DNA of 64,000 nt from Gammaproteobacteria bacterium (GTDB lineage Bacteria > Pseudomonadota > Gammaproteobacteria > SZUA-152), in NCBI GenBank assembly GCA_021647705.1, contig JAKIUF010000004.1, forward strand, positions 74,878-138,877, read 5' to 3'. Below the pieces are notes generated by a model. That model saw only the letters and a list, made by a program, of their open reading frames with translations. It was not told the origin of the DNA and made no database searches. Position 1 is the stretch's first letter. Each line of letters starts with the position of its first letter. Both the position numbers and the translations under genes were made by a program. This document shows positions 38,490 to 62,539 of the stretch, piece by piece.

Positions 38490-38991
38490 TTATGTTTTAT
38501 CACTGTAAAAACCCAACAAATCACCCTACAGAAACCTGTAAAACAATCAGCCCGAGGAGACTAAATGAAATGCCATGCTTAATTTTATAGCTATAAATAA
38601 TAATCACTAATCTTCGTGTTTTGGTAAAAATAAACACAACCATAGAATAAATAAAGCATGAAATAAAATCGAAACGACTACGAGCAGTATAATATTTGTT
38701 TCTTCCCAGCCCCGATGAAGCACTAAAATTAATTCAATATGCTATAGAAGATCTACAACAATATCTACTTATGAATTAGTCATTAAAAAGAATGGGTGAG
38801 TAAATTTATTTACACTTAAAAGTTCAGTGATAATAAAAACGCGGATAAATTTCTATAAAAATACATACAACTGATTTTTTTGCAAAACCATTCGCATTCT
38901 GCGATTACTCAAAGAAAGTTATCACTAACTCCGAGCATGAGATTAATATAATTCCTTGTTTTCATTGATCTAAAATAATTCTATTGCCTGC

Positions 38992-39007
38992 TGGCATGGT
39001 CTCTGCT
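38992..39007 (+). promoter_or_regulatory. candidate sigma54 promoter (-24 TGGCAT / -12 CTGCT)
   Basis: TGGCATGGTCTCTGCT has GG and GC spaced 12 nt apart, ~40 nt upstream of the STAS gene. Confidence 0.35.
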
Positions 39008-39047
39008 CTATCCCTCCAAAACAAGCAAACTATTTTTGGAGGTGGTA

Positions 39048-39404
39048 ATGGACTTTGAATGTATCGACACGACCGATGGTGATCTGATCGTCAAGCTATG
39101 TGGTGAAATGGATGCCCTGGGCTGCACAAAGATACGCACCGAGCTGGAACAGATAACTAATACTGAAAATAGCAATGTGTCTCTTGACTTAAGTCAGGTG
39201 AGTTTTCTCGATTCCTCTGGAATTGGTGCTATCGTTTTTCTGTACAAACGCCTTAAAGCCCAGGGAAGAACACTGATTATTGTCGGCGTGCAAGGTCAGC
39301 CTCAAGAGCTAATGAAACTACTGCGTATCGATAGCGCTATCCCGGTCAGCGTGATGCCTGTTAATGAATTATATGACGCCACCCCTTTACAGAAAACACA
39401 CTAA
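39048..39404 (+). CDS. STAS-domain anti-sigma-factor antagonist
   Basis: Start taken at MDFECIDTTDGDLIVKLCGEMD; VSFLDSSGIGAIV is the conserved phosphorylatable-Ser region. Confidence 0.8.
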   Translation: MDFECIDTTDGDLIVKLCGEMDALGCTKIRTELEQITNTENSNVSLDLSQVSFLDSSGIGAIVFLYKRLKAQGRTLIIVGVQGQPQELMKLLRIDSAIPVSVMPVNELYDATPLQKTH

Positions 39405-40219
39405 TGCACCAGTTAAGTATTAGCATTATTTGCTTTGCTTTGCTTGCTCTTGGTGGATGCGTGAATTGGCCTGTCGGGGGCCATGGTGGCATGGCTGAAC
39501 ATTATCAAGGAACACTAACCCCTGTTATGCCTGATCAACCACTAGGCCCGGAGCATGGCTTACGTTTTGATTTGGACCTGGCCCGCCAGCACCTGGACAT
39601 ACTCATACTGGAAGGTGCGGAATTGTGTTTTCCTGCAACGGTAATACAGGCCAGACAACGCCAAAATGATATCACTCGCGAGCTTTACGGTAATCTTGAT
39701 TTTGATGCGGCCAACAATCTGGTTGTGCAGCGTAAATTGTTGGCCCGTCTGGAGCGTCAACTTGACTATGTAAAACAACAAAGTGTTTGTATCCTGCCCA
39801 TAACTGAAGGCCAGGAAAAACCCGGAGATATTGGCAAGCATATCTATGATTTATTAAATGGTGATAATCAGTTTTCCGCTGACTCACCTGAGCTCAACCC
39901 CAAATATGTGGGCCAACTGGCTGAGGCTGCTCAACTGTTGCGCAACCAGCCGGGTTATCATTTGCGCATCATTGGTCATCCCGACACTTTGGAAAGACCG
40001 GAATATAATCGCAAACTCTCTTTGCAACGAGCCAAAAAGGTCGGACGTTATTTACAAGTTATGGGACTTCCCACTGAACGCATCCTGGTTGATGCAGTTG
40101 GTCCAGACCATCCATTATTGGCTACTGATGATAAACAGACACACACTCAACGGATAAACCGGCGTGTCAGTATTGAATTAATAGAAGCCCCGCCCTTGCC
40201 CCAAACAACCCGGAAATAA
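39404..40219 (+). CDS. OmpA-family lipoprotein
   Basis: Lipobox LALGGC; C-terminal OmpA-like domain (YHLRIIGHPD...NRKLSLQRAKKV...NRRVSI). Confidence 0.75.
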   Translation: MHQLSISIICFALLALGGCVNWPVGGHGGMAEHYQGTLTPVMPDQPLGPEHGLRFDLDLARQHLDILILEGAELCFPATVIQARQRQNDITRELYGNLDFDAANNLVVQRKLLARLERQLDYVKQQSVCILPITEGQEKPGDIGKHIYDLLNGDNQFSADSPELNPKYVGQLAEAAQLLRNQPGYHLRIIGHPDTLERPEYNRKLSLQRAKKVGRYLQVMGLPTERILVDAVGPDHPLLATDDKQTHTQRINRRVSIELIEAPPLPQTTRK

Positions 40220-40224
40220 ACACA

Positions 40225-42027
40225 ATGCCATCAAAAATAAACCTGGGGATAACCCTGTTATTACTTTTTTTTCCATTGCTGGTAAATGCTGAGGAGTACC
40301 GGGTACAGGTAAGCGATCTGATCCAGGTATCACTACCGGGTGAAAAAACCCTGGAAAAACCCATCAGCGTGAATCGACAAGGCAGTATCTTGTTACCCGA
40401 AATAGGCCTTATACCGGTAGCTGGTATAACCGAATCCGAAATGAAAATACGGGTCACTGATCACCTAAGCAATGTATTTCGTGACCTAACTCATTTACAA
40501 GTTTATGTCTATAAAAAACAATTGCTAATAAATGTATCAGGATATGTAAATCGACCGGGCGAGTTTACATTAGAAGCCAACGGATCAATACAAATGGCAC
40601 TTCATGCCGCCGATGGGCTACGCACCGGGGCACAACTGGACCGTATACAATTGATTCGCGACGGTACTACCCAAGTGTTTAATTATAAACAATACCTCGA
40701 TAGCGGAAATCATAGCTCACTACCTAAACTGAAGTCTCTGGATACCCTTTTCATACCCGCATCACCCATGACAGGGAATGTTGAAGTAGACTTTGACCCA
40801 TCCAAAATTGCAGATGCCGGTGATGCTGCTGATAACCGCAATGCGGTCAAAATATTTGGGGAAGTAAACCGGCCGGGTAGCTTTTCTCACCGGAAGTCGA
40901 TGAACATTGTCGATCTGCTTATGCGTGCTGGAGGTGTTACTCGTCATGCTGGGGTTGAACAAATCCGGGTAATCACTCAAGGCACACCTGTTTTGTTTGA
41001 TCTGACACAATACCTTGATACCGGTGACGAAAAATTTTTACCCATAATGATGCCGGGTGCTACCATTTTTGTCCCGCGACAAGAGGATGAAATAAAAACC
41101 GGTGAAAACCGGATTTATGTAATGGGTGCGGTCGCCCGACCCGGTGCATTCCAAGGTAAAGAGGGGGCCACATTAATGGATGTGCTGGCCAATGCAGGTG
41201 GGCCAACACGTTTCGCCGAATCAGAACAGATTCGCATTATAAAAACCAACGGTAATATCATCCCGTTTAATCTGGTTGGCTACATGGAAGGCACAACCTC
41301 CCTCCCGCTCCCCGAAATTACACCGGGTGATGCCATTTTCATCCCCGAAAAAAGAAATAGCAATGATAAAAAATCACAATGGATACACCAGGCCTCAGAA
41401 AAATCCATTTACATCTTTGGCCAGGTCGGCTCACCAGGTCGATATGTATTTACTGATGCTATGCATTTTCTGGATATTCTTTCCGCTGCTGATGGCCCTA
41501 CAGGTAATGCCGATATTCACAATATCCGCATTAGTCATCGTAATGCTAAACATGCCCGGGTCAGTAAATTAAATCTGGCATTGTATTTTGAAACCGGTGA
41601 TGAATATCTATTACCTTCAGTAAAAACAGGGGATACTATTTATGTGCCAGAAAAAAACCGCATTTGGCTGGATCAAAGCAAAGAAACTACAATACGTGTA
41701 CTCGGTGCCGTTAATAAACCAGGACGCTATCGCTTCAACAACAGCATGACCCTGCTCGATCTACTTGCAGAAGCTGGCGGCCCAAGCTCAAATGCATATG
41801 TTAAAAAAATTACTGTGGTAAATCTCTCATGTTGCCGGGATCAGGCCCGCAGTTTCGATTTAGCAAAATTCAGCCGTACCGCATCCTTTGCAGACTTACC
41901 CGTATTGCGAGTCGGTGACACCGTATATGTACCCAGCAAAGATGAAAGCACTCTGGAAAAAATGCGCGCCGGCTTGAATGATATATTTCAGCTGACTGCA
42001 CTCTCTGCACTGCTAGGCTTTCTCTAA
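40225..42027 (+). CDS. periplasmic polysaccharide export protein (Wza/EpsA-like, five SLBB repeats)
   Basis: Sec signal; five repeats of a [VI]xGxVxxPGxF...L...L..AGG...A....I.[IL] unit. Confidence 0.8.
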   Translation: MPSKINLGITLLLLFFPLLVNAEEYRVQVSDLIQVSLPGEKTLEKPISVNRQGSILLPEIGLIPVAGITESEMKIRVTDHLSNVFRDLTHLQVYVYKKQLLINVSGYVNRPGEFTLEANGSIQMALHAADGLRTGAQLDRIQLIRDGTTQVFNYKQYLDSGNHSSLPKLKSLDTLFIPASPMTGNVEVDFDPSKIADAGDAADNRNAVKIFGEVNRPGSFSHRKSMNIVDLLMRAGGVTRHAGVEQIRVITQGTPVLFDLTQYLDTGDEKFLPIMMPGATIFVPRQEDEIKTGENRIYVMGAVARPGAFQGKEGATLMDVLANAGGPTRFAESEQIRIIKTNGNIIPFNLVGYMEGTTSLPLPEITPGDAIFIPEKRNSNDKKSQWIHQASEKSIYIFGQVGSPGRYVFTDAMHFLDILSAADGPTGNADIHNIRISHRNAKHARVSKLNLALYFETGDEYLLPSVKTGDTIYVPEKNRIWLDQSKETTIRVLGAVNKPGRYRFNNSMTLLDLLAEAGGPSSNAYVKKITVVNLSCCRDQARSFDLAKFSRTASFADLPVLRVGDTVYVPSKDESTLEKMRAGLNDIFQLTALSALLGFL

Positions 42028-42734
42028 TGCATATCCCATCACAACACATCGAAATCGAACGAATTTACTCCCAGGTTCTCGGCGAAGGAAAACGCTCGAT
42101 AGCCATCAGTTCGGCAAACTCCGGTGAAGGTGTAAGTTCCCTTGCCCAGGCATTGGTACAACGTAATCTTCTGGCCGGTCATTCCACACTGCTGGTTGAC
42201 CTTAATTTACATCATCCTTCTCTCAGCAGCCTGCTCAAACTGGACGAATCGGAACAGGAGGCGGACCTGCTTGATAAACCACAACTGGTTACCGTACAAC
42301 AATCCATTGCATTAACCGGAGTCACTCCTCCAACCCATCGCAGTCTAGTGATGAAACTGCGCAAACCTGGCGTGCTCGAACAATATATCGCAGAGTGGCA
42401 ACAGACATATGATGCTGTAATTTTCGACACGTCACCCATTAATCGCACTAATGCCAACAATATTCCGCCAGAACGGGTTGCTGCTGCCTGTGATGGCAGT
42501 TTGCTGGTTGTGTTGGCAGGCAGTACGACCGAAGCAATGGTTTCCACCGCAGTGAATAAACTAAATGCCGCAGGCGCACAATTATTGGCTTGCATATACA
42601 ATGATCGTGATAACTCTTCCCTCAAAAGTGAATTACTCCGCGAACTTCATCGCCTGGAACCACGTTTCAGTAATATTTCTCATCGTCTCAAAAATTGGGT
42701 GCAACAGAATCAACTACTTTCTATGGAAACCTGA
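42027..42734 (+). CDS. BY-kinase-like P-loop ATPase with degenerate Walker A and A', no TM domain
   Basis: Aligns to the Wzc/CapB kinase domain, but Walker A reads SANSGEGVSS (Lys replaced by Val), A' reads LLVDLNLH (second Asp to Asn), Walker B VIFDTSP; no Tyr-rich tail. Confidence 0.6.
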   Translation: MHIPSQHIEIERIYSQVLGEGKRSIAISSANSGEGVSSLAQALVQRNLLAGHSTLLVDLNLHHPSLSSLLKLDESEQEADLLDKPQLVTVQQSIALTGVTPPTHRSLVMKLRKPGVLEQYIAEWQQTYDAVIFDTSPINRTNANNIPPERVAAACDGSLLVVLAGSTTEAMVSTAVNKLNAAGAQLLACIYNDRDNSSLKSELLRELHRLEPRFSNISHRLKNWVQQNQLLSMET

Positions 42735-42778
42735 AAAGGCGATCACTCAGGTGCCACAAAACTATTAACGGGATAATC

Positions 42779-44320
42779 ATGGATCGCCTACTATTTGAAA
42801 CTCAAAAACCAGTTACGCTGGAAGCAGTCCGTGAATTACGCCACCTGCTTGAGCCGGTTGTACAGGCCACTGTACCTGACCTTTCCATTCAACATCGTAT
42901 TTTGCTCTGCCTTTCTGAAGCAGTGACAAATCTCGTTTTACATGCCGCTCCCAAAGCAAACCTAGTCACTATGTGTTTTGGGCTCAATAGCTATGGATGG
43001 TGGCTGGAACTCCTGGACGATGGTGCATCATGGGATCCATCCCAACATAAACCAATCCATACCCAAAATCAGTTTGAATTGAGTGAACATGGGCGAGGTA
43101 CTTCTCTGCTACACACACAATGCGAACGAATGAAATATTATTCTGGTGATACTGAAAAGCCCAATCAATTACGAATGATCTGGGCAACACCGAAACAGCA
43201 CCTTCGTCCAACTATCTTGATAGTAGAAGACGATGCGTCTTTACGCCGAGTCTATGCCGCTTATCTTACTGAAGATTTCGAGCTACGCATGGCATCCAAT
43301 GGTCATGAAGCACTACAACAATTAAATACCAATAAAATTGATTTGGTTTTATCAGATATTAACATGCCACAGATGAGCGGATTTTCCTTACGGAAAAACC
43401 TGAAACAAGCATCGGGCACAAATATAATGCCCTTTATATTTTTAACTGCTTTTAATGATGCTCACATGCAAAAACAGGCAGCAAGCTTGGGTATTGATGA
43501 TTATTTGGTAAAGCCCGTTGATAAAACACAATTGGTTCACACGATTAACCGTGTGTTAGGACGTTCACAACAAATATATCGACACCTGACAGACCGAATA
43601 GATAAAAATATTACATCATCACTGGCTCCGAAATTACCGGATAAATCACACGGCTGGCGTCTTTGTTTTGCCAACCGTCATACAGGCATTGGTGGGGGAG
43701 ATTTACTCCTACACCGAAGCAGTGAAGAACAATTGGTACTTGTGTTAATTGATATCATGGGCCATGACGACTGTGCTAAGTTTTTTGCTTACGCTTATGG
43801 AGGATATCTTCGCGGATTAATGCACAGCAGTGCAACCGACATATCTCCTTCACAGTTATTGGAAAAACTATCAGAAAGTGCGCTACAGGATGAATTGTTG
43901 TCACAAGTGACATTAACCAGCTGCGTGGTAACTCTTTCACCAGGAGGGAAAATAACACTGGCCAGTGCAGGCCACCCACCGCCACTTATAATCAGTAAAA
44001 ACGGCACTGAAGCAATACCCATTGGCGGCATACTACCTGGCCTTTTGCCCGCCACAACGTATCAAACAAAATCCATACACCTTGCAAATGGGGAGCGTGT
44101 AGCCCTTTATACTGATGGTCTGTTCGAATCAGCTGAAGACAGTGATACCCGAAAAAAACTGGAATCCCGCATAACCACTGCGTTAACAGATACTCTCAAC
44201 AACCCCATTGAACAATCGATACAGACAGCTATGGACGTATTTGATGAACTTGCAGGAACCCCCCCCAAAGATGACACATTATTATTATTAATGGAGAAGA
44301 TAAAACCTTGCCCAATATAA
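42779..44320 (+). CDS. anti-sigma kinase (HATPase_c_2) - receiver - PP2C/SpoIIE phosphatase fusion
   Basis: EAVTNLVLHA...WWLELLDDGASWDP resembles RsbW/SpoIIAB; REC residues PTILIVEDD...LVLSDINMP...VKP; PP2C residues GGDLL...DIMGHD...YTDGLFE. Confidence 0.75.
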   Translation: MDRLLFETQKPVTLEAVRELRHLLEPVVQATVPDLSIQHRILLCLSEAVTNLVLHAAPKANLVTMCFGLNSYGWWLELLDDGASWDPSQHKPIHTQNQFELSEHGRGTSLLHTQCERMKYYSGDTEKPNQLRMIWATPKQHLRPTILIVEDDASLRRVYAAYLTEDFELRMASNGHEALQQLNTNKIDLVLSDINMPQMSGFSLRKNLKQASGTNIMPFIFLTAFNDAHMQKQAASLGIDDYLVKPVDKTQLVHTINRVLGRSQQIYRHLTDRIDKNITSSLAPKLPDKSHGWRLCFANRHTGIGGGDLLLHRSSEEQLVLVLIDIMGHDDCAKFFAYAYGGYLRGLMHSSATDISPSQLLEKLSESALQDELLSQVTLTSCVVTLSPGGKITLASAGHPPPLIISKNGTEAIPIGGILPGLLPATTYQTKSIHLANGERVALYTDGLFESAEDSDTRKKLESRITTALTDTLNNPIEQSIQTAMDVFDELAGTPPKDDTLLLLMEKIKPCPI

Positions 44321-44419: not shown

Positions 44420-44480
44420 TGAATCTCTGCATTCCTTGCGTCTTCGCACCTTTGCTTTGCTTTGCATTTTCATTATTCAG
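44420..44480. repeat. fragment of the MITE core
   Basis: gaatctctgcattccttgcgtcttcgcacctttgc...ttttcattattcag matches 29060-29125. Confidence 0.5.
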
Positions 44481-46791
44481 ATTTCACAAGTACAGCACCC
44501 TCATACCCGGTTAGACTAATCGTATTAGTGGCGGCTGTGAGTGTTCCATCATAATTTACACGACGGTAATAGCCGGGCAATACAAGTTCATGTGTAACGG
44601 ACATGAATTCTGGGTCACCACCAAAGAAATCAGTATGATACAAAACAAGGCCATTAGTGTAATCACGAGCAATAATCATTTGTTGCGGAAAATTAACACC
44701 ACCAATGGATTTTTTATCGTCTGATTGCCAAGCGTAGTAAATGTTCGACGGAGTCACTGGCACAGAACCCACCTGGTCAAACGTGGCTATACCTGGGTGA
44801 GCTAATACTAACTGAGTGCTATCACCTATCACCGCATAGTCATTATCTGTTGTTTTTGCTGTATAACGCAAAGGCTGAACAGTTTGATCAGGCCACTCTT
44901 GAACCTTTTTTGCAGGACTTCCGATATCGACAGATAACATGAGAGATGGTTGGTAAGCAATATTCTTAGGGATTCCTGGTTGATAAAAATTCCCTTCTTC
45001 AGTATTTCCAGAACCATAGTTATAACTATTATTCCAACTGGTATAAAAAGTTTTCCCAGGAATATTAACTAGATAATACATGGCCAGTCCCGTTGAAATT
45101 CTCGACTCCCAAGCAGTCTTTGTATTCAACATTGGAATAGAACCTGTCCACCCGGCATGAGCAATAATAGTTGTTGTTTTATTGCTTTGTGCCAGAGCAA
45201 AAATATCCCACATTTTTGCTATACCAAAATAACCATCAAGCCCCTGTCCAGGGCGAATATAATCTTCACGAAGAAACGTATCAAATACATCAACATATTT
45301 CATTTTGTTATTTCGGAGTGAAAAGATATTTTCCGCTGATGTGTTTGCTGCCACCCAAGAACTCCCTGACACGGACTTTATTTCCCGGATAGTGTCAAGA
45401 AAAGCATCCTGATACTTTTCTTTAAATACCGGATCATCAACCATAAGTCCATGTTCTATCGTTTTACCACCAACTCCGGCAACATTTACCCCCTCAAGTT
45501 TGAAGACATCATCGTTATATGCACCTGCCCGAGAATTTTTAATCCATTCCTGGTTTATGACATTTGCTATAGCTGCCCTGTAGGATGGGTTAAGAAAATC
45601 AGGCCTTTGAAAATTTGAGGTCTTACCCCACATATTACCAAGTGGTGTTACTCTTGATTCATAACGAAACCGTGCGGAAGCTGTCGTATTCACACGACCT
45701 TTAAATTCTGCGGCATCAATATACCCGTCACCATTTTTATCATTTTCCGAATCCCACCCACGAATCAGGCGCTTCTGGTTGAGTTTATTAATATATGGCA
45801 TAAAGTCTTTTATCATAATATCCTGAACAACCGGTTGATCATTAATATCTTCATCAACACGGCATATTTTTACAATATAAAACTTTTTGCCCTCCTTAAT
45901 ATACTTATTCCCAAAAAATTGCCCTGTTTTATTATTTGGGTCATATGTCGCCGCTTTCACCCAGTCACTAGCAGGCTGCCAACTTATGACACCCGAAATT
46001 TTCAACCCGTTAGTACCATCCATCATACCTGAATCACTGGTATTCCATTGATTCACTACACCATTATCGGCATCAATTCCGGAAGGATATTTCACAACCA
46101 ATCGCCCTGTTGTCGCTGTCGATTTCAGCATAAATTCCACTTGGTCAAACTTCTCTGGCATATAAATAAAAACACACCCCCCCTTTTCTGATCCGTTGAA
46201 AGGCTCAATTTCATAAGGGGGAAATTTCCAGACAAGAAACCCCGAGTGATTTTCCTCCGCTGTCCAGCCAGCAATCCATGGGCGTCGGTTTAAGGGTGTA
46301 TATATTGAATGATCTGGATATTGACCCTGAACAATAGTGTCTTCTGCGAAATGAAGAAAGTAACTTTCATAATCCTCACTAACACGTTCAGCATATTCAC
46401 GCAAATCAAACCCGACTGAGGTCGGAGAAAAATCTATTTTTTGAACATATATATAACCAATGTTAATTATATTATCAGCTGCTGACTTATCATAAGTTGA
46501 GCCAAATACAGCATCAGCATGATTCAACTCCCAGTCAATCAGTTGATCTTTTGTTGAAATGGGATACCCCATGGGGTCATAACTGTCAGCGTGATAACCA
46601 GGAATAATCCATGCTGTTAAAGTGGATGGATACACTTCTGTACGAAAGTTGGAATCAGTTACTGGTGCCGTGGCATCAATAGGGGTTTCTTCGCTTGCAC
46701 CCCCTCCACAGGAACTCAACAACGAAACGAAAATTATCATCAATAATAATCTATGAATAAAACGAGGAAATATAACCGGGTCTCTTTGCAT
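44473..46791 (-). CDS. large secreted lipoprotein, possibly a glycoside-hydrolase-like enzyme
   Basis: Lipobox LLSSCGGG; 772 aa; NGDGYIDAAEF is a Ca-binding-like loop; no confident family assignment. Confidence 0.45.
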   Translation of the reverse strand: MQRDPVIFPRFIHRLLLMIIFVSLLSSCGGGASEETPIDATAPVTDSNFRTEVYPSTLTAWIIPGYHADSYDPMGYPISTKDQLIDWELNHADAVFGSTYDKSAADNIINIGYIYVQKIDFSPTSVGFDLREYAERVSEDYESYFLHFAEDTIVQGQYPDHSIYTPLNRRPWIAGWTAEENHSGFLVWKFPPYEIEPFNGSEKGGCVFIYMPEKFDQVEFMLKSTATTGRLVVKYPSGIDADNGVVNQWNTSDSGMMDGTNGLKISGVISWQPASDWVKAATYDPNNKTGQFFGNKYIKEGKKFYIVKICRVDEDINDQPVVQDIMIKDFMPYINKLNQKRLIRGWDSENDKNGDGYIDAAEFKGRVNTTASARFRYESRVTPLGNMWGKTSNFQRPDFLNPSYRAAIANVINQEWIKNSRAGAYNDDVFKLEGVNVAGVGGKTIEHGLMVDDPVFKEKYQDAFLDTIREIKSVSGSSWVAANTSAENIFSLRNNKMKYVDVFDTFLREDYIRPGQGLDGYFGIAKMWDIFALAQSNKTTTIIAHAGWTGSIPMLNTKTAWESRISTGLAMYYLVNIPGKTFYTSWNNSYNYGSGNTEEGNFYQPGIPKNIAYQPSLMLSVDIGSPAKKVQEWPDQTVQPLRYTAKTTDNDYAVIGDSTQLVLAHPGIATFDQVGSVPVTPSNIYYAWQSDDKKSIGGVNFPQQMIIARDYTNGLVLYHTDFFGGDPEFMSVTHELVLPGYYRRVNYDGTLTAATNTISLTGYEGAVLVKSE

Positions 46792-47788: not shown

Positions 47789-50140
47789 TTGAACCTTTGC
47801 AAACACGGACAAACCCTATTGATCTATATTTCCAGATCAACCCACATACGACGGTGGCCCCTCTGGTTACAACTGGCACTGGCAATGACGATTGTTTTTT
47901 TTCTAGTCAATTTAATTGCTGCATCATTAGTCCGCTATGTGGTCAGTAATTTTGAATTCAAACAGGCGGAAGAACAAAGCCACAATTCTTTTGCGCTTTT
48001 TTCTGTCGCCATCATTGATGCTGTTATCACGGAAGATATACCCTTGATAAACACTGTTGTGGCGCGCTCTTTGGAGCGTATCCCCAACATCACGGCTCTC
48101 TCCATTGAAAGTGAGAAAGGTAAATTATTTGCCAAGCATTCACGAGAAGACACCATAATCAGCAACAATATACGTGACTACCACTACGCTATCGAGCTTG
48201 AAGGAAAGCGATTGGGCACTATTAATATCAGCTGGAATATGGCTCCGATCCAGAAAAAAATAAATCGTCATATAACCAAATTTCAATTATTTATTGCTAC
48301 TATTTTTTCTCTTTTGACCGGCCTGACAATCATACTCATACATTACCTTACCGTTCGCCCGATACATAATGCAACTCACTACCTAACTGCATTGTCAGAG
48401 AATAAACAATCTTTTCCGCTAAAAAATAGGTTCCTTACCAATCGCGAACTAGAGCTCCTCAAAATATCAGCGGACAATTTTGTCCGCATCATGCAACAAC
48501 GTGAGCACGATCTACTACAAACATGCAAAAAATTACAAATTTCCCGTGACGAAACCCTCAATGCCAACCGGGAAAAATCAGATTTTCTGGCTACGGTGAG
48601 CCATGAAATCCGCATTCCGATGAATGCTGTGCTAGGCGTTCTCAGCTTGCTTAAAAACACCTCTCTGGATAATAAACAGCTACAGTTGGTACGCACTGGC
48701 TGTGATTCTGGTGAACTGCTATTGACCATTATCAATGATATTCTCGATTTTTCCAAAATGGAAGCTGACAAATTACAATTAAAGCACACCAGCTTTAATT
48801 TACATCGACTGCTCACCAATAGCGTCGAATTGCTAAAACCACAGGCAGACCAAAAAATGCTGGCCCTCATTCTTTTTTTAGAGGCCGATCTTCCCTGTTA
48901 CGCCAAGGGAGACCCAGATCGCCTGTGCCAAATTCTAATCAACCTGATCAATAATGCCATTAAGTTTACTTCCGTCGGCAGAATCAGCATCAGAGCCTCA
49001 GCAACCTATCTTGGCAATGAAAGCTTTACCTTTCGCTGCTCTGTGCAGGACACAGGCATAGGTATTGCCAAAGACTTCCAGGCATCACTGTTTGAAAAAT
49101 TTACGATGGGAAATCAAAGCCACTCCAGAAACCATGAGGGTACCGGCCTGGGTCTGGCCATCTGTAAACACTTAGTTACTCTTATGCAGGGCAATATCAA
49201 CTTTGACAGCACACCTGGAAATGGCAGCACTTTTACATTTACCATTACACTGGGAACCGCAAACGAGCAGGAAAGCACGGATAGAACGACATTAAATAAA
49301 ATCCAAGAATTACCGACAACTAATACCCGAATTTTACTGGCTGAAGACAATCCGGCCAATCAAATGGTCATCAAAAATATTCTGGAACATGCCGGCCTGC
49401 AAGTGGATATTGCCACCAACGGCCGCGAGGCAATAGAAGCTGTACGCACCCTGCCCTATGATATTGTGCTAATGGATGTTTCTATGCCGGATATGGATGG
49501 TATCAGCGCTACACGAGAAATCCGCCAACTCCCCGGAGAAACCGGAAAACTGCCTATTGTAGCACTCACTGCTCATTCTCTGTCAGGCGATAGAGAACGC
49601 TTTATTCAAGCCGGTATGGATGATTATTTAACCAAACCCATAGACCATATTGCCACCTTGCATTGCATCGCCCGTTGGACAAAAAGCATTAACACCCAAG
49701 AATTGAAAAATGACCGTACAATAAAGCACACCAACCCATCTTCTGCCAATGCCGGGGATGGATATGTTGCCCCATTAGTCGATACAGATATACTACAACA
49801 GTTGGTATATGACACTTCACCAGAAATCATAACTGAATTGTTGACGCTGTATATTAATGATGCCCGTAAACGAATAAAGAAAATACAGGCTGCAATAACA
49901 ACGCCTGATTTCAACATTTTGGAATTTGAAAGCCATACCCTGAGTAGTAGTGCTATCACCCATGGCAACCTTAAACTCCATCACCTTGCGAAAAAAATTG
50001 AACAATTTTGTCAACGGGGTGATTATGAGAAAGTGCTCACATACGCCAGCTCGCTGTCAGCACTTGCGAATGAGTCCTTTATTTCATTAGAAAAATATCG
50101 GTCTACGATAAAGGTGGGACAGGAATCGCCCGAATCTTGA
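47789..50140 (+). CDS. hybrid sensor histidine kinase (two TM periplasmic sensor, HisKA, HATPase, REC, Hpt)
   Basis: H-box ATVSHEIRIPMN; G-boxes DTGIGI/GTGLGLAI; REC ILLAEDNPANQ...LMDVSMP; C-terminal Hpt ESHTLSSSA. Confidence 0.9.
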   Translation: MNLCKHGQTLLIYISRSTHIRRWPLWLQLALAMTIVFFLVNLIAASLVRYVVSNFEFKQAEEQSHNSFALFSVAIIDAVITEDIPLINTVVARSLERIPNITALSIESEKGKLFAKHSREDTIISNNIRDYHYAIELEGKRLGTINISWNMAPIQKKINRHITKFQLFIATIFSLLTGLTIILIHYLTVRPIHNATHYLTALSENKQSFPLKNRFLTNRELELLKISADNFVRIMQQREHDLLQTCKKLQISRDETLNANREKSDFLATVSHEIRIPMNAVLGVLSLLKNTSLDNKQLQLVRTGCDSGELLLTIINDILDFSKMEADKLQLKHTSFNLHRLLTNSVELLKPQADQKMLALILFLEADLPCYAKGDPDRLCQILINLINNAIKFTSVGRISIRASATYLGNESFTFRCSVQDTGIGIAKDFQASLFEKFTMGNQSHSRNHEGTGLGLAICKHLVTLMQGNINFDSTPGNGSTFTFTITLGTANEQESTDRTTLNKIQELPTTNTRILLAEDNPANQMVIKNILEHAGLQVDIATNGREAIEAVRTLPYDIVLMDVSMPDMDGISATREIRQLPGETGKLPIVALTAHSLSGDRERFIQAGMDDYLTKPIDHIATLHCIARWTKSINTQELKNDRTIKHTNPSSANAGDGYVAPLVDTDILQQLVYDTSPEIITELLTLYINDARKRIKKIQAAITTPDFNILEFESHTLSSSAITHGNLKLHHLAKKIEQFCQRGDYEKVLTYASSLSALANESFISLEKYRSTIKVGQESPES

Positions 50141-50741
50141 CGATTGTGCCGCTTGCCACCTTCGATATCCAAAAAATAAATAGAAACCTTGAGCTTATGT
50201 GCTTTCTTAAGTTTCTCGTTATCAAGCAAAAGGTTGTCGCCTTTGCCCAAAACATGGTTTTCACTGTGTTTTTCTGTACAAATAGAAACCCAAGAGACTT
50301 CTTGACAGGACTCATTACCCGATCTTGAAAAAATAATGATGGCTAAAGAATGCCCATGTTCCTGAATATTCCCTTGCGACACCAGCTTTTCATATTACCG
50401 ATAAAACTCACCATTACTTGCAAAATGCAAAGCAAATTGAAAATTTGTACCTTTTCAATATTTCGACCTATAAGGGAAACCGCTAAACCAATCAGTATTA
50501 TCCCGAAAAACACTAACAATGCTCCACCTGCTTCTGATCGTCCCCGCGCTGCATAAAAAGCAACCACCCATGCGTGTAAATTCCGTATTTTTCTGTGTTC
50601 CCGAACAAACCAAAGGAAAGCTGAGCATTTATTGTACACTTTCAATGCAGGCCAAATAATTATAGGAACCCATTGGCATGATCATTGCTGACATATTCAA
50701 AAGACCTGTTCCAGTTATTGGCATGTCACGAGGGAACCTCT

Positions 50742-51140
50742 ATGTTTTTTATCGCAAATAAGAAAAAAGTGCTCATTATCGATGATGACCCCAGTCTACA
50801 ACGACTACTGCATGCTCGCCTGGAAAGGCACGAGAATGTAAAGATCATAAAAGCAATGGATGGAAAAAACGGTCTTATACAGGCCAGCCTCCATAATCCT
50901 GATTTAATCATCCTGGACTGGATGTTACCGGACATCCAGGGGATTGAGGTTCTTGAACGCCTCAAATGCGAAAGAAAAACAAAAAACACCCCGGTATTAA
51001 TGCTCACTGGGTGCAATAAAACCGGTAACATCGAAGATGCTTTTTATCTTGGGGCTGATGCTTACCTCACCAAAACTGCTTCTTTACAGATATTAGGAAA
51101 GAAAGTCGATGAAATGCTGAGTTCATCCCGTTCGTATTAG
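50742..51140 (+). CDS. single-domain response regulator receiver (CheY-like)
   Basis: KKKVLIIDDDPS...LIILDWMLPD...LTGC...DAYLTKT. Confidence 0.8.
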   Translation: MFFIANKKKVLIIDDDPSLQRLLHARLERHENVKIIKAMDGKNGLIQASLHNPDLIILDWMLPDIQGIEVLERLKCERKTKNTPVLMLTGCNKTGNIEDAFYLGADAYLTKTASLQILGKKVDEMLSSSRSY

Positions 51141-51396: not shown

Positions 51397-54300
51397 ATGC
51401 CAGAGTCTCAAATGCTATGGTTGCCTCAGTACTTGCCGTTCAATAGAAAGATATCTTTCCAAAATAAAAGTCTGCGAGAAGCGTTTCTACAAAATGTATT
51501 ATTGACCCGGTTACTGGAGCCGTTTGAAAACATGCGCAATACATTAACTAATATATTCGCAACAAAGACAAGTAATACCAGTAGCCAAATTCCCACATCC
51601 CTGACTGTGGGGATTTTACTCGTCTGTGTGATGCCTTTTGTGCTCACACTTCTAGGTATGGATTTCGGGACTCGTGGTATACCCGTTGATCATTCATGGG
51701 CACTACAAGCGCCAGAATATGATGTGATTGATGCCCAGTTTCGCGCACTGTCCGGTGCCTTTACCCACACGCTACTGGAATGGAGTGCATTCTGTGTGGC
51801 AACCTTCGTGGTATTTCTGGCTTTCAGCCACTACAAAATCACCCATGATGTCACCACTCCTATTATTGGTGTCGCTTTTTTCATGGCAGGCTGCATGGAT
51901 GCTTTTCATACTTTGGCGGCAGACCGACTATTCGATGCAGTAGCAGACAACCACGACCTGATTCCTTTTACTTGGGCTATTTCCCGTTTGTTCAGCGCAC
52001 TCATTATGATCATTGGTGTGGGCATTGTGTTATTCCGCAACCCGGAAACCAATAAAAAACCCGGTTTTGGTTTTGTTATCGGCATCAGTCTGCTTTTTGG
52101 AATAGCTGCCTATATCATTATTCATATTTCCGCCACATCCACCCAACTGCCACAAACAACTTACCCTGATGCTATTTTAACACGACCATACGATGCCTTA
52201 CCGTTGGTACTGTTTGCTTTTGCCGGGTTAATAATATTTCCCCGCCTGTATAAACGTCATCCAAGTTTGTTCGCTTATACGCTCATTATCAGTGCAGTAC
52301 CGGAAGTTATCACCCAGCTGCATATGACTTTTGGCTCCACAGCACTGTTCGATAATCATTTTAATATCGCCCATTTTCTGAAAATCGTTGCCTATACCGT
52401 TCCTCTCATTGGCCTGACCCTGGATTATATCCGTGCTCAGCAAACATTGCAGCTGGAAATCGCAGAACGCATGGAAGCAGAAAGTGCATTAAAAATCATC
52501 GAAACCCGTCAGCGTACTATTCTGGAAACAGTGGCTGATGCCATCATCACTATCAATAAAAAAGGCATCATTCAAACATTCAATCCCGCTGCTGAGAAAA
52601 TTTTCGGTTACCCTGCTGCCGAAGCGTTAGGGAATAATATATCCATGCTTCTGCCGGAAAAAGAACAAAAGGAACACGACTGCTATGTCATAAATTCTCA
52701 ACTACATTCTCCCCGCATTTTCAATCAAGACCGTGAGCTACAAGGGCGACGTAAAGATGGTTCTCTATTACCGCTGGAACTCAATATCGCACCAATGAGA
52801 CTAGAGAAAGAACAAGGATTTGTTGGCGTCCTGCGTGATATCACTGAACGTAAAAAAAATGAAAGTGCGTTACAAAGTGCGATAGAAAAAGCCGAGGCGG
52901 CCAGTCAGGCCAAATCTCTTTTTTTAGCGACCATGAGCCATGAAATTCGTACTCCGATGAATGCTGTATTAGGCATTCTTGGCCTGCTCAAGGAAAGCAC
53001 TCTGAATAACCAACAGCGGCATTTAGTACACACGGGTCGTGAATCTGGTGAACTGCTGCTGACAATTATCAATGACATCCTCGACTTTTCCAAAATGGAG
53101 GCTGACAAGCTGCAATTGGAGCACACTTGTTTTGATCTTCATCGCTTACTGACTAACAGTATTGAGCTGCTCAAACTACAGGCTGAACGTAAAGGGCTTA
53201 TCCTTGAACTGAACCTCGATTCAGACTTGCCACGGTATGCCAAAGGTGACCCGGACCGGCTACGCCAAATTTTGCTCAAACTAGGTAATAATGCGACTAA
53301 ATTTACCCGCGATGGCCGGATTAACATTAGCGCCTCCGCTGCTCGCATTAATGATACAGCGTTCACCCTCCACTGTACCGTACAAGACACGGGCATTGGT
53401 ATTTCCCAAGAACACCAAGCTACCTTGTTCGAAGAATTCACAATGGCAGACCAGGGACACACCAGAACCCACGAAGGAACGGGACTGGGACTCGCCATTT
53501 GTAAACGCCTGGTCTCACTCATGCAGGGCAGTATTAACATGAGTAGTGAAGCTGGAAAAGGCAGCCTCTTCTTCTTTGATGTGAAGCTCGAATTGGCAAC
53601 AGAACAGGAATGTGGCAACGCACAAGCAATAATGAAACCACAGCAACTGCCTCCAACCAATACACGTATTCTGTTAGCAGAAGATAACCCCGCTAATCAG
53701 ATGGTGATCAAAAATATCCTGGAATCTTCTAACTTGCGAGTCGATATTGTTGCCAACGGTCGTGAAGCCATTGAGGCCGTACGCCATCTACCTTACGACA
53801 TCGTACTAATGGATATTTCCATGCCGGAAATGGATGGCATAACAGCGACGCGGGAAATTCGCCAACTCCCCGGAAAAATGAGCAAACTTCCCATTATTGC
53901 TCTTACCGCTCATTCACTCTCAGGGGATAAAGAACGCTTTCTTGCGGCAGGCATGGATGAGTACCTGAGCAAACCCATAGACCGCGCCGCCATGTTACAC
54001 TGCATCGCCCACTGTATCGGTAAAACCATAGAACAAAAAACCATCGAACAAAAACCTCAACCAGACTCAGTGATACCACAACCCAACACACCTCCTGCCA
54101 ATACCACAGATAATCATATGGATCCGTTTGTAGATGAAAGTGTACTGCAACAACTGACGCACGACACTGCCCCCGAAATCGTTCCTGGACTACTGATGTT
54201 TTACATCGAGGATGCCCGCAAGCGGGTAGAACAAATCCAGAATGCCATCATAAAAAAAGATATTGAAGCCCTGGAATTTGAAAGCCATACATTAGGCAGT

Positions 54301-54495
54301 AGCGCTGCGGCTCACAGCAACGCAAAACTGTGCGCTCTGGCACGAAAAATAGAATGTCTTTGCCAGGAAGGTGCCTATCAACAAGCACTATCGGAAGCTG
54401 CGTCGTTATCATCCATTGCCAATGAGTCTTTCCGTCAGCTGGCAGAGCGTGCCAACAAGAAATTTGAAATAACCAATAAAGAAGAAAAAACATGA
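51397..54495 (+). CDS. hybrid sensor histidine kinase (about 8-TM N-terminal domain, PAS, HisKA, HATPase, REC, Hpt)
   Basis: Multi-TM N-terminal ~340 aa; PAS LETVADAIITINKKGIIQTFN; H-box ATMSHEIRTPMN; REC plus Hpt ESHTLGSSA; C-terminal 600 aa about 70% identical to the 47789 kinase. Confidence 0.9.
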   Translation: MPESQMLWLPQYLPFNRKISFQNKSLREAFLQNVLLTRLLEPFENMRNTLTNIFATKTSNTSSQIPTSLTVGILLVCVMPFVLTLLGMDFGTRGIPVDHSWALQAPEYDVIDAQFRALSGAFTHTLLEWSAFCVATFVVFLAFSHYKITHDVTTPIIGVAFFMAGCMDAFHTLAADRLFDAVADNHDLIPFTWAISRLFSALIMIIGVGIVLFRNPETNKKPGFGFVIGISLLFGIAAYIIIHISATSTQLPQTTYPDAILTRPYDALPLVLFAFAGLIIFPRLYKRHPSLFAYTLIISAVPEVITQLHMTFGSTALFDNHFNIAHFLKIVAYTVPLIGLTLDYIRAQQTLQLEIAERMEAESALKIIETRQRTILETVADAIITINKKGIIQTFNPAAEKIFGYPAAEALGNNISMLLPEKEQKEHDCYVINSQLHSPRIFNQDRELQGRRKDGSLLPLELNIAPMRLEKEQGFVGVLRDITERKKNESALQSAIEKAEAASQAKSLFLATMSHEIRTPMNAVLGILGLLKESTLNNQQRHLVHTGRESGELLLTIINDILDFSKMEADKLQLEHTCFDLHRLLTNSIELLKLQAERKGLILELNLDSDLPRYAKGDPDRLRQILLKLGNNATKFTRDGRINISASAARINDTAFTLHCTVQDTGIGISQEHQATLFEEFTMADQGHTRTHEGTGLGLAICKRLVSLMQGSINMSSEAGKGSLFFFDVKLELATEQECGNAQAIMKPQQLPPTNTRILLAEDNPANQMVIKNILESSNLRVDIVANGREAIEAVRHLPYDIVLMDISMPEMDGITATREIRQLPGKMSKLPIIALTAHSLSGDKERFLAAGMDEYLSKPIDRAAMLHCIAHCIGKTIEQKTIEQKPQPDSVIPQPNTPPANTTDNHMDPFVDESVLQQLTHDTAPEIVPGLLMFYIEDARKRVEQIQNAIIKKDIEALEFESHTLGSSAAAHSNAKLCALARKIECLCQEGAYQQALSEAASLSSIANESFRQLAERANKKFEITNKEEKT

Positions 54496-56834: not shown

Positions 56835-56867
56835 TTTATACACTCTCTTTAATTTAGGTATTTGATA

Positions 56868-57227: not shown

Positions 57228-57243
57228 CGGCATCAATATTGCA
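57228..57243 (+). promoter_or_regulatory. candidate sigma54 promoter (CGGCAT-N5-TTGCA)
   Basis: GG and GC spaced 12 nt apart; -12 element TTGCA exact; 30 nt upstream of the GT4 gene start. Confidence 0.45.
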
Positions 57244-57272
57244 GCTATATCTATAAAAAAATAAGGATTGAC

Positions 57273-58289: not shown

Positions 58290-58387
58290 TTGCAATCTGC
58301 GAAGCAAACCAGAAAAACATACTGATAAAAATAATATTTCTTATTATTTTTCGATGAAAATCAATTAACAAACCTCATTACAGCGCT

Positions 58388-58403
58388 TGGCTCGTCTCTT
58401 GCA
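58388..58403 (+). promoter_or_regulatory. candidate sigma54 promoter (TGGCTC-N5-TTGCA)
   Basis: 11 of 12 consensus positions with correct spacing; ~137 nt upstream of the next glycosyltransferase. Confidence 0.45.
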
Positions 58404-58539
58404 AACCCTTTGATTACAGAGCATTTAGCCATTCAGGGTATCCGTATGCAATTACATCATATCAACCACCAGAGTATCGTCCTTACCTTTTTTCATCATT
58501 GGGCCGCACACGAAACAAATACCCCAATAAGGTCACATT

Positions 58540-62533: not shown

Positions 62534-62539
62534 GGAAAT

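Follow-up and report, generated by a model that had tools for sequence, protein, structure and literature searches.

A probable syp-type regulatory and export cassette in an uncultured marine gammaproteobacterium

In V. fischeri, SypE, described as a protein with an HPK-like Ser kinase, a receiver (REC) and a PP2C phosphatase (PMC3610818), phosphorylates the STAS protein SypA at S56, and SypA is the downstream partner, acting below syp transcription (PMC4517449, PMC3610818, PMC10120452, PMC12369376). The syp table of A. salmonicida runs from an anti-sigma antagonist (sypA), OmpA (sypB), export (sypC) and capsular synthesis (sypD) through a response regulator (sypE) and a kinase (sypF) to a LuxO-like regulator (sypG) (PMC6420764). 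The scv and rbd loci are without sypE and sypF (PMC4517449, PMC8941931), and in V. parahaemolyticus scvABCD form one operon by RT-PCR (PMC8941931). That syp/scv loci are widely distributed is already published.

Here we analyse a 64-kb stretch of DNA (the window) from an uncultured marine gammaproteobacterium, in which a sequence-only reading had picked out five co-oriented genes as a STAS/kinase/phosphatase switch set within a polysaccharide operon. The genes are real, all five ORFs lying on the + strand (39048-44320), and the switch is borne out by their domains and by a conserved syp-type gene order. Judged from these features, they are very probably the sypA-sypB-sypC-sypD-sypE-type genes for regulation and export at the head of a biofilm polysaccharide locus of the syp/scv/rbd type. 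The novelty that the reading implied falls away because the module is already published as SypA/SypE of the syp (scv, rbd) locus: since the five genes correspond to SypA–SypE, which have been studied before and with which the ‘symbiosis polysaccharide’ (syp/scv) locus begins, the arrangement is a known system, of which this locus is a further example. Exact sequence matches to the locus came from metagenomic runs only.

The five-gene cassette

A gene-neighbourhood comparison, as the sequence-only reading had proposed, found the same order in nine further loci, which represent at least six lineages of Gammaproteobacteria, with cassette identities of 38-92%. These relatives are a metagenomic locus (L081) and loci from Psychromonas, Bacterioplanes, Enterovibrio, Parasalinivibrio, Cycloclasticus, a Chromatiales MAG, a Porticoccaceae MAG and a Plesiomonas replicon. 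Because the order recurs in nine other loci, the five-gene arrangement is not due to chance; also kept is the succession of cassette, kinase(s), SypG-like activator and glycosyltransferases. The domains assigned in the sequence-only reading (STAS, OmpA, Poly_export/SLBB, HATPase_c_2, REC and SpoIIE) all score above their Pfam cut-offs, as detailed below.

The first gene (39048..39404, +) encodes a sypA-like, single-domain STAS protein of 118 aa (Pfam STAS, 69.8 bits against a gathering cut-off of 22.6), and most likely starts at ATG 39048, with GGAGGTGG upstream, rather than at the alternative TTG 39036. By homology its phosphorylatable serine would be S56, within DSSG. The published functional residues of SypA (D22, F53, S56, S57, K67, R68, Q84, E87 and L91) have identical numbers in this protein and, together with G25, are invariant across eight orthologues. 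Our comparison with V. fischeri SypA and SypE draws on fragments derived from primers, on residue numbers in the literature and on gene order; the sypA fragments, reconstructed from published primer sequences, can be aligned without gaps under the same numbering, and 15 of 18 residues around S56 are identical.

Overlapping the STAS gene by 1 nt is a sypB-like gene (39404..40219, +) for an OmpA-family lipoprotein of 271 aa, with a lipobox (LALGGC) and an OmpA domain at residues 157-245 (Pfam, 58.9 bits, cut-off 27.2). This is the least conserved member of the cassette, and in two loci (L084, L090) the second gene is short and without an OmpA match. After a 5-nt gap comes a sypC-like gene (40225..42027, +) for a Wza-type polysaccharide export protein of 600 aa, which has a signal peptide, a Poly_export domain (Pfam, 42.5 bits, cut-off 28) and five SLBB repeats (Pfam SLBB, 146 bits over four stretches; SLBB_2, 141 bits over five). 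Its orthologues share 49-93% identity in five loci, and its length is the same in L081 but about 700 aa in the other loci.

The fourth, sypD-like gene (42027..42734, +), which overlaps sypC by 1 nt, encodes a P-loop protein of 235 aa that the sequence-only reading had called a degenerate BY-kinase. The label is correct: all BY-kinase family scores are below cut-off (for example 54 bits against 108 for NCBIfam TIGR01007; matches to BceF/CapB in the PDB have E = 9e-6 to 7e-4), the Walker A motif, GEGVSS, has Val where Lys is expected, and there is no Tyr in the final 40 residues and hence no C-terminal tyrosine cluster. The Lys-to-Val change is invariant (six of six aligned orthologues). As Walker A lysine and tyrosine cluster are missing from every orthologue, the SypD-like protein would not be under autophosphorylation control as true BY-kinases are.

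The last gene (42779..44320, +) encodes a sypE-like response regulator of 513 aa in which an N-terminal HPK-like Ser kinase (Pfam HATPase_c_2, 42.2 bits, cut-off 27.4), a central receiver (Response_reg, 93.9 bits, cut-off 30.2) and a C-terminal PP2C phosphatase (SpoIIE, 100.5 bits, cut-off 25) follow one another. Catalytic residues are intact in the kinase (E47/N51, D80, G105-R106-G107), the receiver (E150-D151-D152, D193, T223, K245) and the phosphatase (D308, D325, D446, D498-D499), and the published SypE residues R19, R22, E48, N52 and R107 correspond, one residue earlier here, to the invariant R18(R)/R21, E47, N51 and R106. The closest named SypE homologue (62% identity) is from a ‘Gammaproteobacteria bacterium’ MAG, followed by those of an Oceanospirillales MAG, Moritella and Psychromonas (52-57%). 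An AF2 model has a pLDDT of 81.6, and among solved folds RssB, Rv1364c and SiaA come nearest. The start at ATG 42779 is favoured over an unlikely TTG 42695 because homologues have 503-525 aa and independent gene calls give 513 aa. Only with the TTG would the gene overlap sypD (by 40 nt); most likely, then, the two are separated by a 44-nt gap, so that the 0-6 nt spacing or overlap previously claimed for the whole series holds for the first three junctions and fails at the fourth.

Promoters and downstream genes

A sigma-54 type -24/-12 promoter, TGGCATGGTCTCTGCT (38992..39007, +), begins exactly where the sequence-only reading had begun the module and ends 41 nt ahead of the start codon of the STAS gene. 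This promoter is identical in L081, and GG-N10-GC sites are equally placed in L082, L083, L001 and L002. About 90 nt before it lies an enhancer-like element, TGCAAAACCATTCGCATTCTGCGA (38881..38904, +); a single mismatch separates its core TTCGCATTCTGCGAT from the SypG site published for V. fischeri, TTCTCANNNTGMDWN (SypG and LuxO site motifs from PMC10162802). The element is unique in the window, where no chance matches are expected; upstream of the STAS gene, L081 and L083 have it in conserved and L082 in degenerate form. We infer that a SypG-like activator binds there.

Altogether, sigma-54 sites precede the STAS gene and four further transcription units, always on the coding strand. One promoter, TGGCACGATAGTTGCT (47252-47267, +), has the next ORF 537 nt downstream of it and is accompanied by a LuxO-type enhancer-like site, TTGCAAAACGCAAAGCAAA (47123-47141, +); both are kept in L081 despite an otherwise diverged spacer. 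Another, TGGCATGATCATTGCT (50674-50689, +), follows an enhancer-like site matching the LuxO motif, TTGCAAAATGCAAAGCAAA (50418-50436, +), which contains a perfect TTGCAWWWTGCAA. Further sigma-54-like sites lie before the epimerase/dehydratase gene (56981-56966, -) and in the biosynthesis region (57228 and 58388, +), the latter with an enhancer-like site at 58290 (+). At three promoters the enhancer-like sites are of the LuxO type (TTGCAWWWTGCAA-like) and not of the published SypG type, which suggests that the regulatory wiring may differ from that of V. fischeri.

Convergent with sypE is a lineage-specific gene (44473..46791, -) for a lipoprotein of 772 aa with a lipobox (LLSSC) and no Pfam or NCBIfam match. 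An exhaustive search found 220 representative clusters, some fused to GH5 cellulase or Ig-like domains; among the compared loci it is present in L081 only, and it stands outside the canonical syp cassette. The two Hpt-containing hybrid kinases reported downstream are both there, the first beginning 3.47 kb after the sypE stop at 44320. This one is SypF-like (47789..50140, +; HisKA-HATPase_c-REC-Hpt) and in this lineage seems to be an additional copy; the other, also a hybrid sensor kinase, is of the MASE3-PAS type and carries REC and Hpt domains (51397..54495, +). Between them lies a gene for a single-domain receiver (50685..51140, +), whose listed TTG start overlaps the promoter and whose true start is probably downstream; a REC gene of 127-133 aa directly follows sypE in L082, L083 and L084, and does so with one gene between in L086.

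Next come a SypG/ScvE-like sigma-54-dependent response regulator (54492..55889, +; REC-AAA+-HTH_8), a LuxO paralogue that scores best against the LuxO model of NCBIfam (661 bits, below the cut-off of 800) and is 63-69% identical in relatives, and an NAD-dependent sugar epimerase/dehydratase (55881..56843, -), whose position and orientation are the same in L001, L083, L084 and L086. The biosynthesis block (57228..63487, +) contains glycosyltransferases (57273-58289 and 58540-59691, +), a SypK-like flippase (59688-61121, +), a SypL-like Wzy_C protein (61118-62533, +) and, directly after this Wzy-like gene, a REC-GGDEF protein (62540-63487, +).

A putative switch and its possible targets

By homology with V. 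fischeri, the hybrid kinases would hand phosphate on to two receivers by way of their Hpt domains. Once phosphorylated, the SypG-like activator would turn on the sigma-54 promoters, that of the STAS gene included. Through its N-terminal kinase domain, the unphosphorylated SypE-like protein would phosphorylate S56 of the STAS protein and so inactivate the latter, while phosphorylation of the SypE-like receiver (D193) would favour the PP2C domain and thereby dephosphorylation of the STAS protein, which might then allow polysaccharide production at a post-transcriptional step via a putative partner. Such post-translational control, as the sequence-only reading had suggested, fits the literature, since V. 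fischeri SypE phosphorylates SypA at S56 and SypA acts below syp transcription; gating of export in particular would be a further hypothesis.

Possible, if rather unlikely, is direct gating of export or polymerization by the STAS protein: in its unphosphorylated form it would bind a protein encoded in the same operon, with the Lys-less SypD and the Wza-like SypC as the most plausible candidates. This refines the preferred explanation by naming a candidate target and does not replace it. In each of the ten loci the A-(B)-C-D block begins with the STAS gene, which keeps that place in vibrios without sypE (PMC4517449, PMC8941931), although adjacency of genes would be equally explained by co-regulation. 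Loss of the Walker A lysine and tyrosine cluster from every SypD-like orthologue, and the action of SypA below transcription (PMC10120452, PMC12369376), also point this way. In Anabaena, a STAS domain has been proposed to control a polysaccharide glycosyltransferase directly (bioRxiv 10.64898/2026.04.08.717354), but that precedent concerns a glycosyltransferase and not an exporter.

That the STAS protein, in either phosphorylation form, binds a diguanylate cyclase, possibly the REC-GGDEF protein (62540-63487), so that c-di-GMP sets polysaccharide output, seems to us improbable. Such a gene does lie within the locus, right after the Wzy-like gene, the P. aeruginosa partner-switch modules SiaABCD and HsbA-HsbD act on diguanylate cyclases, and the PP2C domain of SiaA structurally matches the sypE-like phosphatase domain; yet the 18-gene V. 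fischeri syp locus is not known to have a REC-GGDEF gene, and SypA is essential there. According to a preprint, the S. meliloti Bgr partner switch likewise acts on diguanylate cyclases (bioRxiv 10.64898/2026.04.08.717354). Very improbable indeed is a canonical switch, in which the kinase domain of the three-domain protein would be an anti-sigma factor holding a locus-specific sigma factor, such as the sequence-only reading had offered, until the STAS protein releases it. The STAS protein does match the NCBIfam anti-sigma factor antagonist superfamily (57.8 bits, cut-off 53.45), but there is no sigma factor gene among ORFs of at least 150 aa in the window, nor one in related loci, and the locus appears instead to rely on sigma-54 promoters together with an enhancer-binding protein. 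Moreover, the V. fischeri sypA sypE double mutant behaves as a sypA mutant, which places SypA downstream of SypE, and SypE is without the dimerization residues of RsbW/SpoIIAB (PMC10120452). On the preferred reading, the STAS protein would be the output of the switch rather than an anti-sigma factor antagonist.

Comparison with known systems

With the B. subtilis switches RsbV/RsbW/RsbU and SpoIIAA/SpoIIAB/SpoIIE the locus shares a STAS fold with the DSSG serine, a HATPase_c_2 kinase and PP2C chemistry, but here no sigma factor gene occurs among the ORFs of at least 150 aa, a single protein unites kinase and phosphatase with a receiver, and the signalling direction is predicted to be reversed. 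The earlier comparison with P. aeruginosa HptB-HsbR-HsbA stands as an analogy: there, too, one response regulator combines receiver, PP2C and RsbW-like kinase and acts on a STAS protein, with Hpt domains as input and the STAS protein as output. The domain order of HsbR is REC-PP2C-kinase, however, rather than kinase-REC-PP2C, HptB is a stand-alone Hpt protein and that module is not known to lie within a polysaccharide export operon. With the order different and no stand-alone Hpt protein at this locus, we do not count the module as a member of that system. The SypD-like protein resembles the BY-kinases of Wzx/Wzy-type systems (Wzc, CapB, BceF) in its P-loop fold, Wza-like neighbour and Walker B-like FDTSP, and departs from them in the Val of Walker A, an A' motif of VDLNL and the missing tyrosine cluster.

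Closer are V. parahaemolyticus scv and V. vulnificus rbd, which likewise have a STAS-OmpA-Wza-SypD block as first operon, a sigma-54 activator (ScvE/RbdG there), aquatic Gammaproteobacteria as hosts and signs of horizontal transfer (here a GC content of 36-46% in the locus against 50-58% in adjoining core genes). Unlike scv and rbd, this locus and nine of nine relatives have both sypE and sypF. Compared with V. fischeri syp, the local oddities are the 772-aa lipoprotein gene and extra hybrid kinase inserted after sypE, the LuxO-type enhancer sites at three promoters and the REC-GGDEF gene; the single-domain receiver and MASE3-PAS kinase are additional too, and the STAS protein has 118 aa instead of 105. 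Shared with V. fischeri are the three-domain order of SypE, the S56 number, the published interface residues and sigma-54 promoters before several transcription units. As in both V. fischeri and A. salmonicida, sypA-B-C-D-E is followed by an Hpt hybrid kinase, a sigma-54 LuxO-like activator and, downstream, glycosyltransferases, a flippase and a Wzy-like gene, and the gene order and annotations are identical to those of the published A. salmonicida syp table.

A syp/scv-type locus and its five-gene block

The locus adds one more representative to the syp/scv family of biofilm polysaccharide loci (syp in Vibrio fischeri, scv in V. parahaemolyticus, rbd in V. vulnificus), carried by an uncultured marine gammaproteobacterium and accompanied by local additions. 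Five co-oriented ORFs span positions 39036–44320 of the forward strand and match the order of the first syp/scv/rbd operon, with a STAS gene (sypA, 39048–39404), an OmpA-like gene (sypB, 39404–40219), a Wza-like gene (sypC, 40225–42027) and sypD (42027–42734), followed by a three-domain, sypE-like gene (42779–44320). In the published A. salmonicida syp table, sypA is listed as a putative anti-sigma factor antagonist, sypB as OmpA family, sypC as polysaccharide export, sypD as capsular polysaccharide synthesis, sypE as a response regulator, sypF as a histidine kinase, sypG as a LuxO-like regulator, and sypH onwards as glycosyltransferases (PMC6420764, Table 4). In V. parahaemolyticus, scvABCD is a single operon by RT-PCR (PMC8941931).

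The sequence-only reading had proposed five co-oriented genes with these domains, and in the STAS, OmpA-like, Wza-like and three-domain proteins every claimed domain exceeds its Pfam gathering score: STAS (69.8 bits), OmpA (58.9), Poly_export (42.5) with SLBB in four stretches and SLBB_2 in five, and, in the three-domain protein, HATPase_c_2 (42.2), Response_reg (93.9) and SpoIIE (100.5), which supports the STAS, RsbW-like and PP2C assignments alike. The sypB-like protein carries a lipobox (LALGGC) and the sypC-like protein a plain signal peptide. The Wza-like protein is 600 aa long here and in the metagenome contig L081, whereas every other relative has one of roughly 700 aa (for example, 7032–9152 in Psychromonas and 7190–9292 in Bacterioplanes); tblastn covered 93% of it.

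Spacing of 0–6 nt or overlaps had been proposed throughout the block, which holds for the first three junctions (1-nt overlap, 5-nt gap, 1-nt overlap) but fails at the fourth, where the start of the sypE-like gene decides: a TTG at 42695 would give a 40-nt overlap with gene 4, and the ATG at 42779 a 44-nt gap. Since homologues are 503–525 aa long (120 among the matches listed) and genes predicted independently on matching metagenome contigs encode 513 aa, the TTG start was rejected and the gap is taken as 44 nt. The STAS gene most likely starts at ATG 39048, preceded by GGAGGTGG.

Downstream of the three-domain protein lie a 772-aa ORF of no known family (44473–46791, minus strand), a HisKA-HATPase-REC-Hpt hybrid kinase (47789–50140), a single-domain receiver, and a second hybrid kinase, MASE3-PAS-HisKA-HATPase-REC-Hpt (51397–54495); two Hpt-bearing hybrid kinases had been correctly anticipated here. 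These are followed by a SypG/ScvE-like REC-Sigma54_activat-HTH_8 regulator (54492–55889), a minus-strand epimerase, and then, at 57273–62533, two GT4 glycosyltransferases, a SypK-like Polysacc_synt flippase and a SypL-like Wzy_C (O-antigen-ligase/Wzy) protein. As in syp, then, the cluster holds glycosyltransferases with SypK- and SypL-like proteins, as well as a LuxO-related sigma-54-dependent regulator with sigma-54 promoters before operons; the window ends before any sypM–R equivalents. Directly after the Wzy-like gene is a REC-GGDEF (PleD/WspR-like) gene (62540–63487, forward strand), which the V. fischeri syp locus is not known to have.

Conservation of the cassette and local additions

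Homologues of the three-domain protein form at least 348 clusters at E <= 1e-10, nearly all with the same three Pfam domains. Nine loci were inspected, being those whose SypE-like protein is 38–90% identical to that of the window: L081, Psychromonas ossibalaenae, Bacterioplanes sanyensis, Enterovibrio nigricans, Parasalinivibrio latis, MAGs of Cycloclasticus, Chromatiales and Porticoccaceae, and a 300-kb replicon of Plesiomonas shigelloides. In all nine, the STAS gene, a second gene, and the Wza-like, SypD-like and SypE-like genes occur in this order and are tightly spaced, and so a chance arrangement is rejected; neither the domains nor the gene order contradicts the sequence-only reading. 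The Cycloclasticus and Plesiomonas loci have a short second gene with no OmpA match. A contig scan with generic receiver/PP2C peptide patterns returned full-length relatives only in Enterovibrio and Parasalinivibrio among the 80 loci listed.

The sypE-containing cassette is thus widespread and closely conserved far beyond the Vibrionaceae, and with more than 340 homologue clusters of one three-domain architecture and an identical gene order in 9 of 9 loci inspected, the sypE-less form of V. parahaemolyticus and V. vulnificus looks like the exception. A wide distribution of scv/syp loci had already been described by Liu et al., who found them in 148 species belonging to 28 aquatic genera and eight orders and noted signs of horizontal transfer (PMC8941931). 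Base composition similarly suggests that the present locus was acquired horizontally, as it and its flanks (the 32000–64000 half of the window) have 36–46% GC, compared with 50–58% in the core genes at 10000–32000 (nadA, aspS, msbA, lpxK, kdsB, comEC and lolCDE-like genes). A plasmid-borne cassette was rejected, as a relative was found only on two non-mobilizable Plesiomonas replicons of 300–396 kb.

In the enterobacterium Plesiomonas, the syp-like cluster of the 300-kb replicon (NZ_CP062197.1, 177205–202671) runs from a GNVR protein through glycosyltransferases and a sugar transferase to the STAS, short, SLBB, SypD-like and SypE-like genes, a permuted order also seen in Psychromonas and the Chromatiales MAG. 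Next to a distant homologue with the kinase-REC-PP2C architecture (L087, 5483–8230; 31% identity) come a STAS gene and then a REC-GerE regulator, but no polysaccharide genes, so that the fused switch also occurs in settings other than syp. Within the higher-GC core genes of the window, a 41% GC patch (18642–20421, minus strand) contains an overlapping pair of AAA_21 (AbiEii/OLD-like ATPase) and DUF4276 genes, which looks like a small defence-type island.

Downstream of sypE, most of the inspected loci carry a small receiver gene, then a single hybrid kinase, the sigma-54 regulator and an epimerase on the minus strand. Among the compared loci, only L081 shares with the window the 772-aa ORF and the first of its two hybrid kinases, which therefore look like a lineage-specific insertion. 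The ORF, convergent with sypE, encodes a predicted lipoprotein (lipobox LLSSC) with no Pfam or NCBIfam match, whose family comprises 220 representative clusters in an exhaustive search. Its module of about 720 aa is sometimes fused to GH5 cellulase or Ig-like surface domains, and the protein may thus be a secreted glycan-processing or glycan-binding protein.

Sigma-54 promoters and enhancer-like sites

There is an exact sigma-54 -24/-12 match, TGGCATGGTCTCTGCT (38992–39007, forward strand), with its end 41 nt short of the STAS start codon; the sequence-only reading had begun the module at the first base of this match. Further -24/-12 matches lie at 47252, 50674, 57228, 58388 and, on the minus strand, 56981. 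Three copies of the pattern TGGCAYN6TGCW occur in the window where 1.2 would be expected, always on the forward strand and in intergenic DNA of the syp-like locus, and one-mismatch sites precede both glycosyltransferase genes and the epimerase. Equivalent sites stand before the STAS gene in five relatives.

About 90 nt upstream of the first match is an enhancer-like sequence, TGCAAAACCATTCGCATTCTGCGA (38881–38904), which occurs once in the window, is conserved in L081 and Bacterioplanes, and is degenerate in Psychromonas. Its core, TTCGCATTCTGCGAT, is one position off the published V. fischeri SypG site TTCTCANNNTGMDWN (PMC10162802). Ahead of three further promoters lie TTGCAAAAYGCAAAGCAAA-like sites, which match exactly by construction, the pattern having been derived from those same sites; one of them holds a perfect LuxO site, TTGCAWWWTGCAA, and the enhancer-promoter pair at 47123/47252 is kept in L081 amid a diverged spacer. 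The best NCBIfam model for the sigma-54 regulator is LuxO (661 bits, under the cut-off of 800), which fits SypG as a LuxO paralogue. Judged from these motifs, a SypG-like regulator would bind the enhancer-like sites, and the lineage is predicted to use enhancer sites of the LuxO type.

Intrinsic terminators within the five genes amount to weak 5–7 bp hairpins inside coding sequence, with none at the junctions; the spacer between sypE and the lipoprotein gene folds no better than shuffles (z = 0.26). Nothing points to termination inside the block, nor is there a clear operon terminator. In that spacer, between the two stop codons, the minus strand at 44440–44465 reads GAAAATGCAAAGCAAAGCAAA, which looks like the 3′ portion of the enhancer-like motif that precedes three sigma-54 promoters, with no promoter nearby. 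The orphan promoter at 47252–47267 and its LuxO-type site at 47123–47141, both conserved in L081, sit 537 nt ahead of the next ORF, and a conserved block, ATCATCACTAATAAAAATACTC, comes after the promoter. Rfam yielded no known RNA family in the window and no Qrr-type sRNA behind this promoter; the region 47123–47788 (forward strand) may represent a long leader, or else a small RNA not described before.

The predicted SypA/SypE switch and its possible target

The comparison with V. fischeri used published residue numbers and primer-derived fragments of its proteins. The SypA residues at the SypE interface are D20, D22, F53, S56, S57, Q85/N84, E87 and L91; S56 is the phosphorylation site, and conserved residues that have been mutated include G25, Y66, K67, R68 and Q84 (PMC10120452, PMC4517449). 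The window STAS protein has E20, D22, G25, F53, S56, S57, Y66, K67, R68, Q84, E87 and L91 at exactly these numbers, most of them invariant in eight orthologues, and conserves the substrate motif FLDSSGIG, which contains S56. Three sypA pieces rebuilt from mutagenic primers (Table 3, PMC10120452) align ungapped under the same numbering: residues 13–29, LVLSVQGDMDAIGCRDI against LIVKLCGEMDALGCTKI, are identical at 8 of 17 positions; residues 46–63, IDLSHVAFLDSSGIGAIV against LDLSQVSFLDSSGIGAIV, at 15 of 18; and the third has IPV at residues 98–100. A short primer-derived SypE piece of seven residues reads PNDDALL against PKDDTLL. Identities to Enterovibrio and Parasalinivibrio, rather than V. 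fischeri, proteins are 50–52% for STAS and 45–46% for the SypE-like protein.

SypE is built as an HPK-like Ser kinase, a receiver and a PP2C phosphatase; N52 of the kinase N-box is essential for inhibition, and R19, R22 and E48 contact SypA (PMC3610818, PMC10120452). The window protein has the same order, with HATPase_c_2 at 40–163, Response_reg at 174–284 and SpoIIE at 344–534 (numbered in the 541-aa TTG form), and SypE R19, R22, E48, N52 and R107 correspond, at a constant one-residue offset, to R18, R21, E47, N51 and R106, the last four being invariant in a 12-sequence alignment. The receiver is intact (D193 with E150-D151-D152, T223 and K245), as are the PP2C metal-binding aspartates (D308, D325, D446, D498-D499), which are invariant in 12 homologues. 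An AlphaFold2 model (mean pLDDT 81.6) is nearest to P. aeruginosa RssB (REC-PP2C), M. tuberculosis Rv1364c (PP2C plus RsbW-like kinase) and SiaA; none of the solved structures compared has kinase, REC and PP2C in that order.

In V. fischeri, unphosphorylated SypE phosphorylates SypA at S56 and blocks biofilm formation, while SypF phosphorelay input favours the SypE phosphatase; biofilm formation depends on unphosphorylated SypA, whose action lies below the level of syp transcription. As the sypA sypE double mutant resembles the sypA mutant, SypA is the output (PMC4517449, PMC3610818, PMC10120452, PMC12369376). All residues that these steps require are conserved in the window, and the same logic is therefore assigned to its module, by homology and with high confidence.

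Export is one candidate for the step on which SypA acts, made somewhat more plausible by the position of the STAS gene and by the nature of SypD. The STAS gene accompanies the B-C-D block in each of the ten loci, as it does in vibrios that lack sypE. SypD matches tyrosine autokinases below threshold only (NCBIfam TIGR01007, 54 bits against a cut-off of 108; PDB entries BceF and CapB, E = 9e-6 to 7e-4), has GEGVSS as Walker A and VDLNL as A′ motif, and lacks any tyrosine in its last 40 residues, in agreement with the ‘degenerate’ BY-kinase proposed earlier. GEGV[ST][ST] recurs in six of six aligned orthologues, each having lost the Walker A lysine, and every orthologue is without the lysine and tyrosines that regulate true BY-kinases; SypD is thus a predicted conserved pseudo-kinase. 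It is conceivable, though we consider it unlikely, that the SypA-type STAS protein would act on a product of its own conserved operon, with SypD as best candidate, and that the switch would replace the tyrosine autophosphorylation controlling a Wza/Wzc-like export and polymerisation machine; if so, it would be the direct post-translational gate that the sequence-only reading guessed at.

A cyanobacterial STAS-glycosyltransferase precedent points to biosynthesis instead of export (bioRxiv 10.64898/2026.04.08.717354), and as a third option the STAS protein might act on a diguanylate cyclase, given the REC-GGDEF gene within the locus and known partner switches acting on such cyclases. A canonical switch, in which the kinase would hold a sigma factor as its anti-sigma factor, is disfavoured, as the syp-like locus runs on sigma-54 and an enhancer-binding protein. 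The locus-specific sigma factor once suggested was not found, there being no sigma factor domain in window ORFs of at least 150 aa or in the nine related loci, and one would have to be encoded elsewhere. What SypA binds is made no more testable by this single instance alone; the broader ortholog set could help to address it.

The module differs from the RsbV/RsbW/RsbU type in that no cognate sigma factor was found, either in window ORFs of at least 150 aa or in the nine related loci. It differs from HptB-HsbR-HsbA, in which HsbR has the order REC-PP2C-kinase and a stand-alone Hpt protein takes part, in having the order kinase-REC-PP2C and Hpt domains only within hybrid kinases. Unlike BY-kinases such as Wzc and CapB, its SypD-like protein lacks both a GxxxxGK[ST] Walker A and a C-terminal tyrosine cluster. 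The proposal of a partner switch inside a polysaccharide operon therefore stands in outline, in its domains and conserved gene order, but describes a system already known: for some 15 years, work on SypA/SypE of V. fischeri, a squid symbiont, has dealt with just such a module inside a polysaccharide export operon. The locus would not surprise a specialist, and the main value of recognizing it is that a false claim of novelty is averted.
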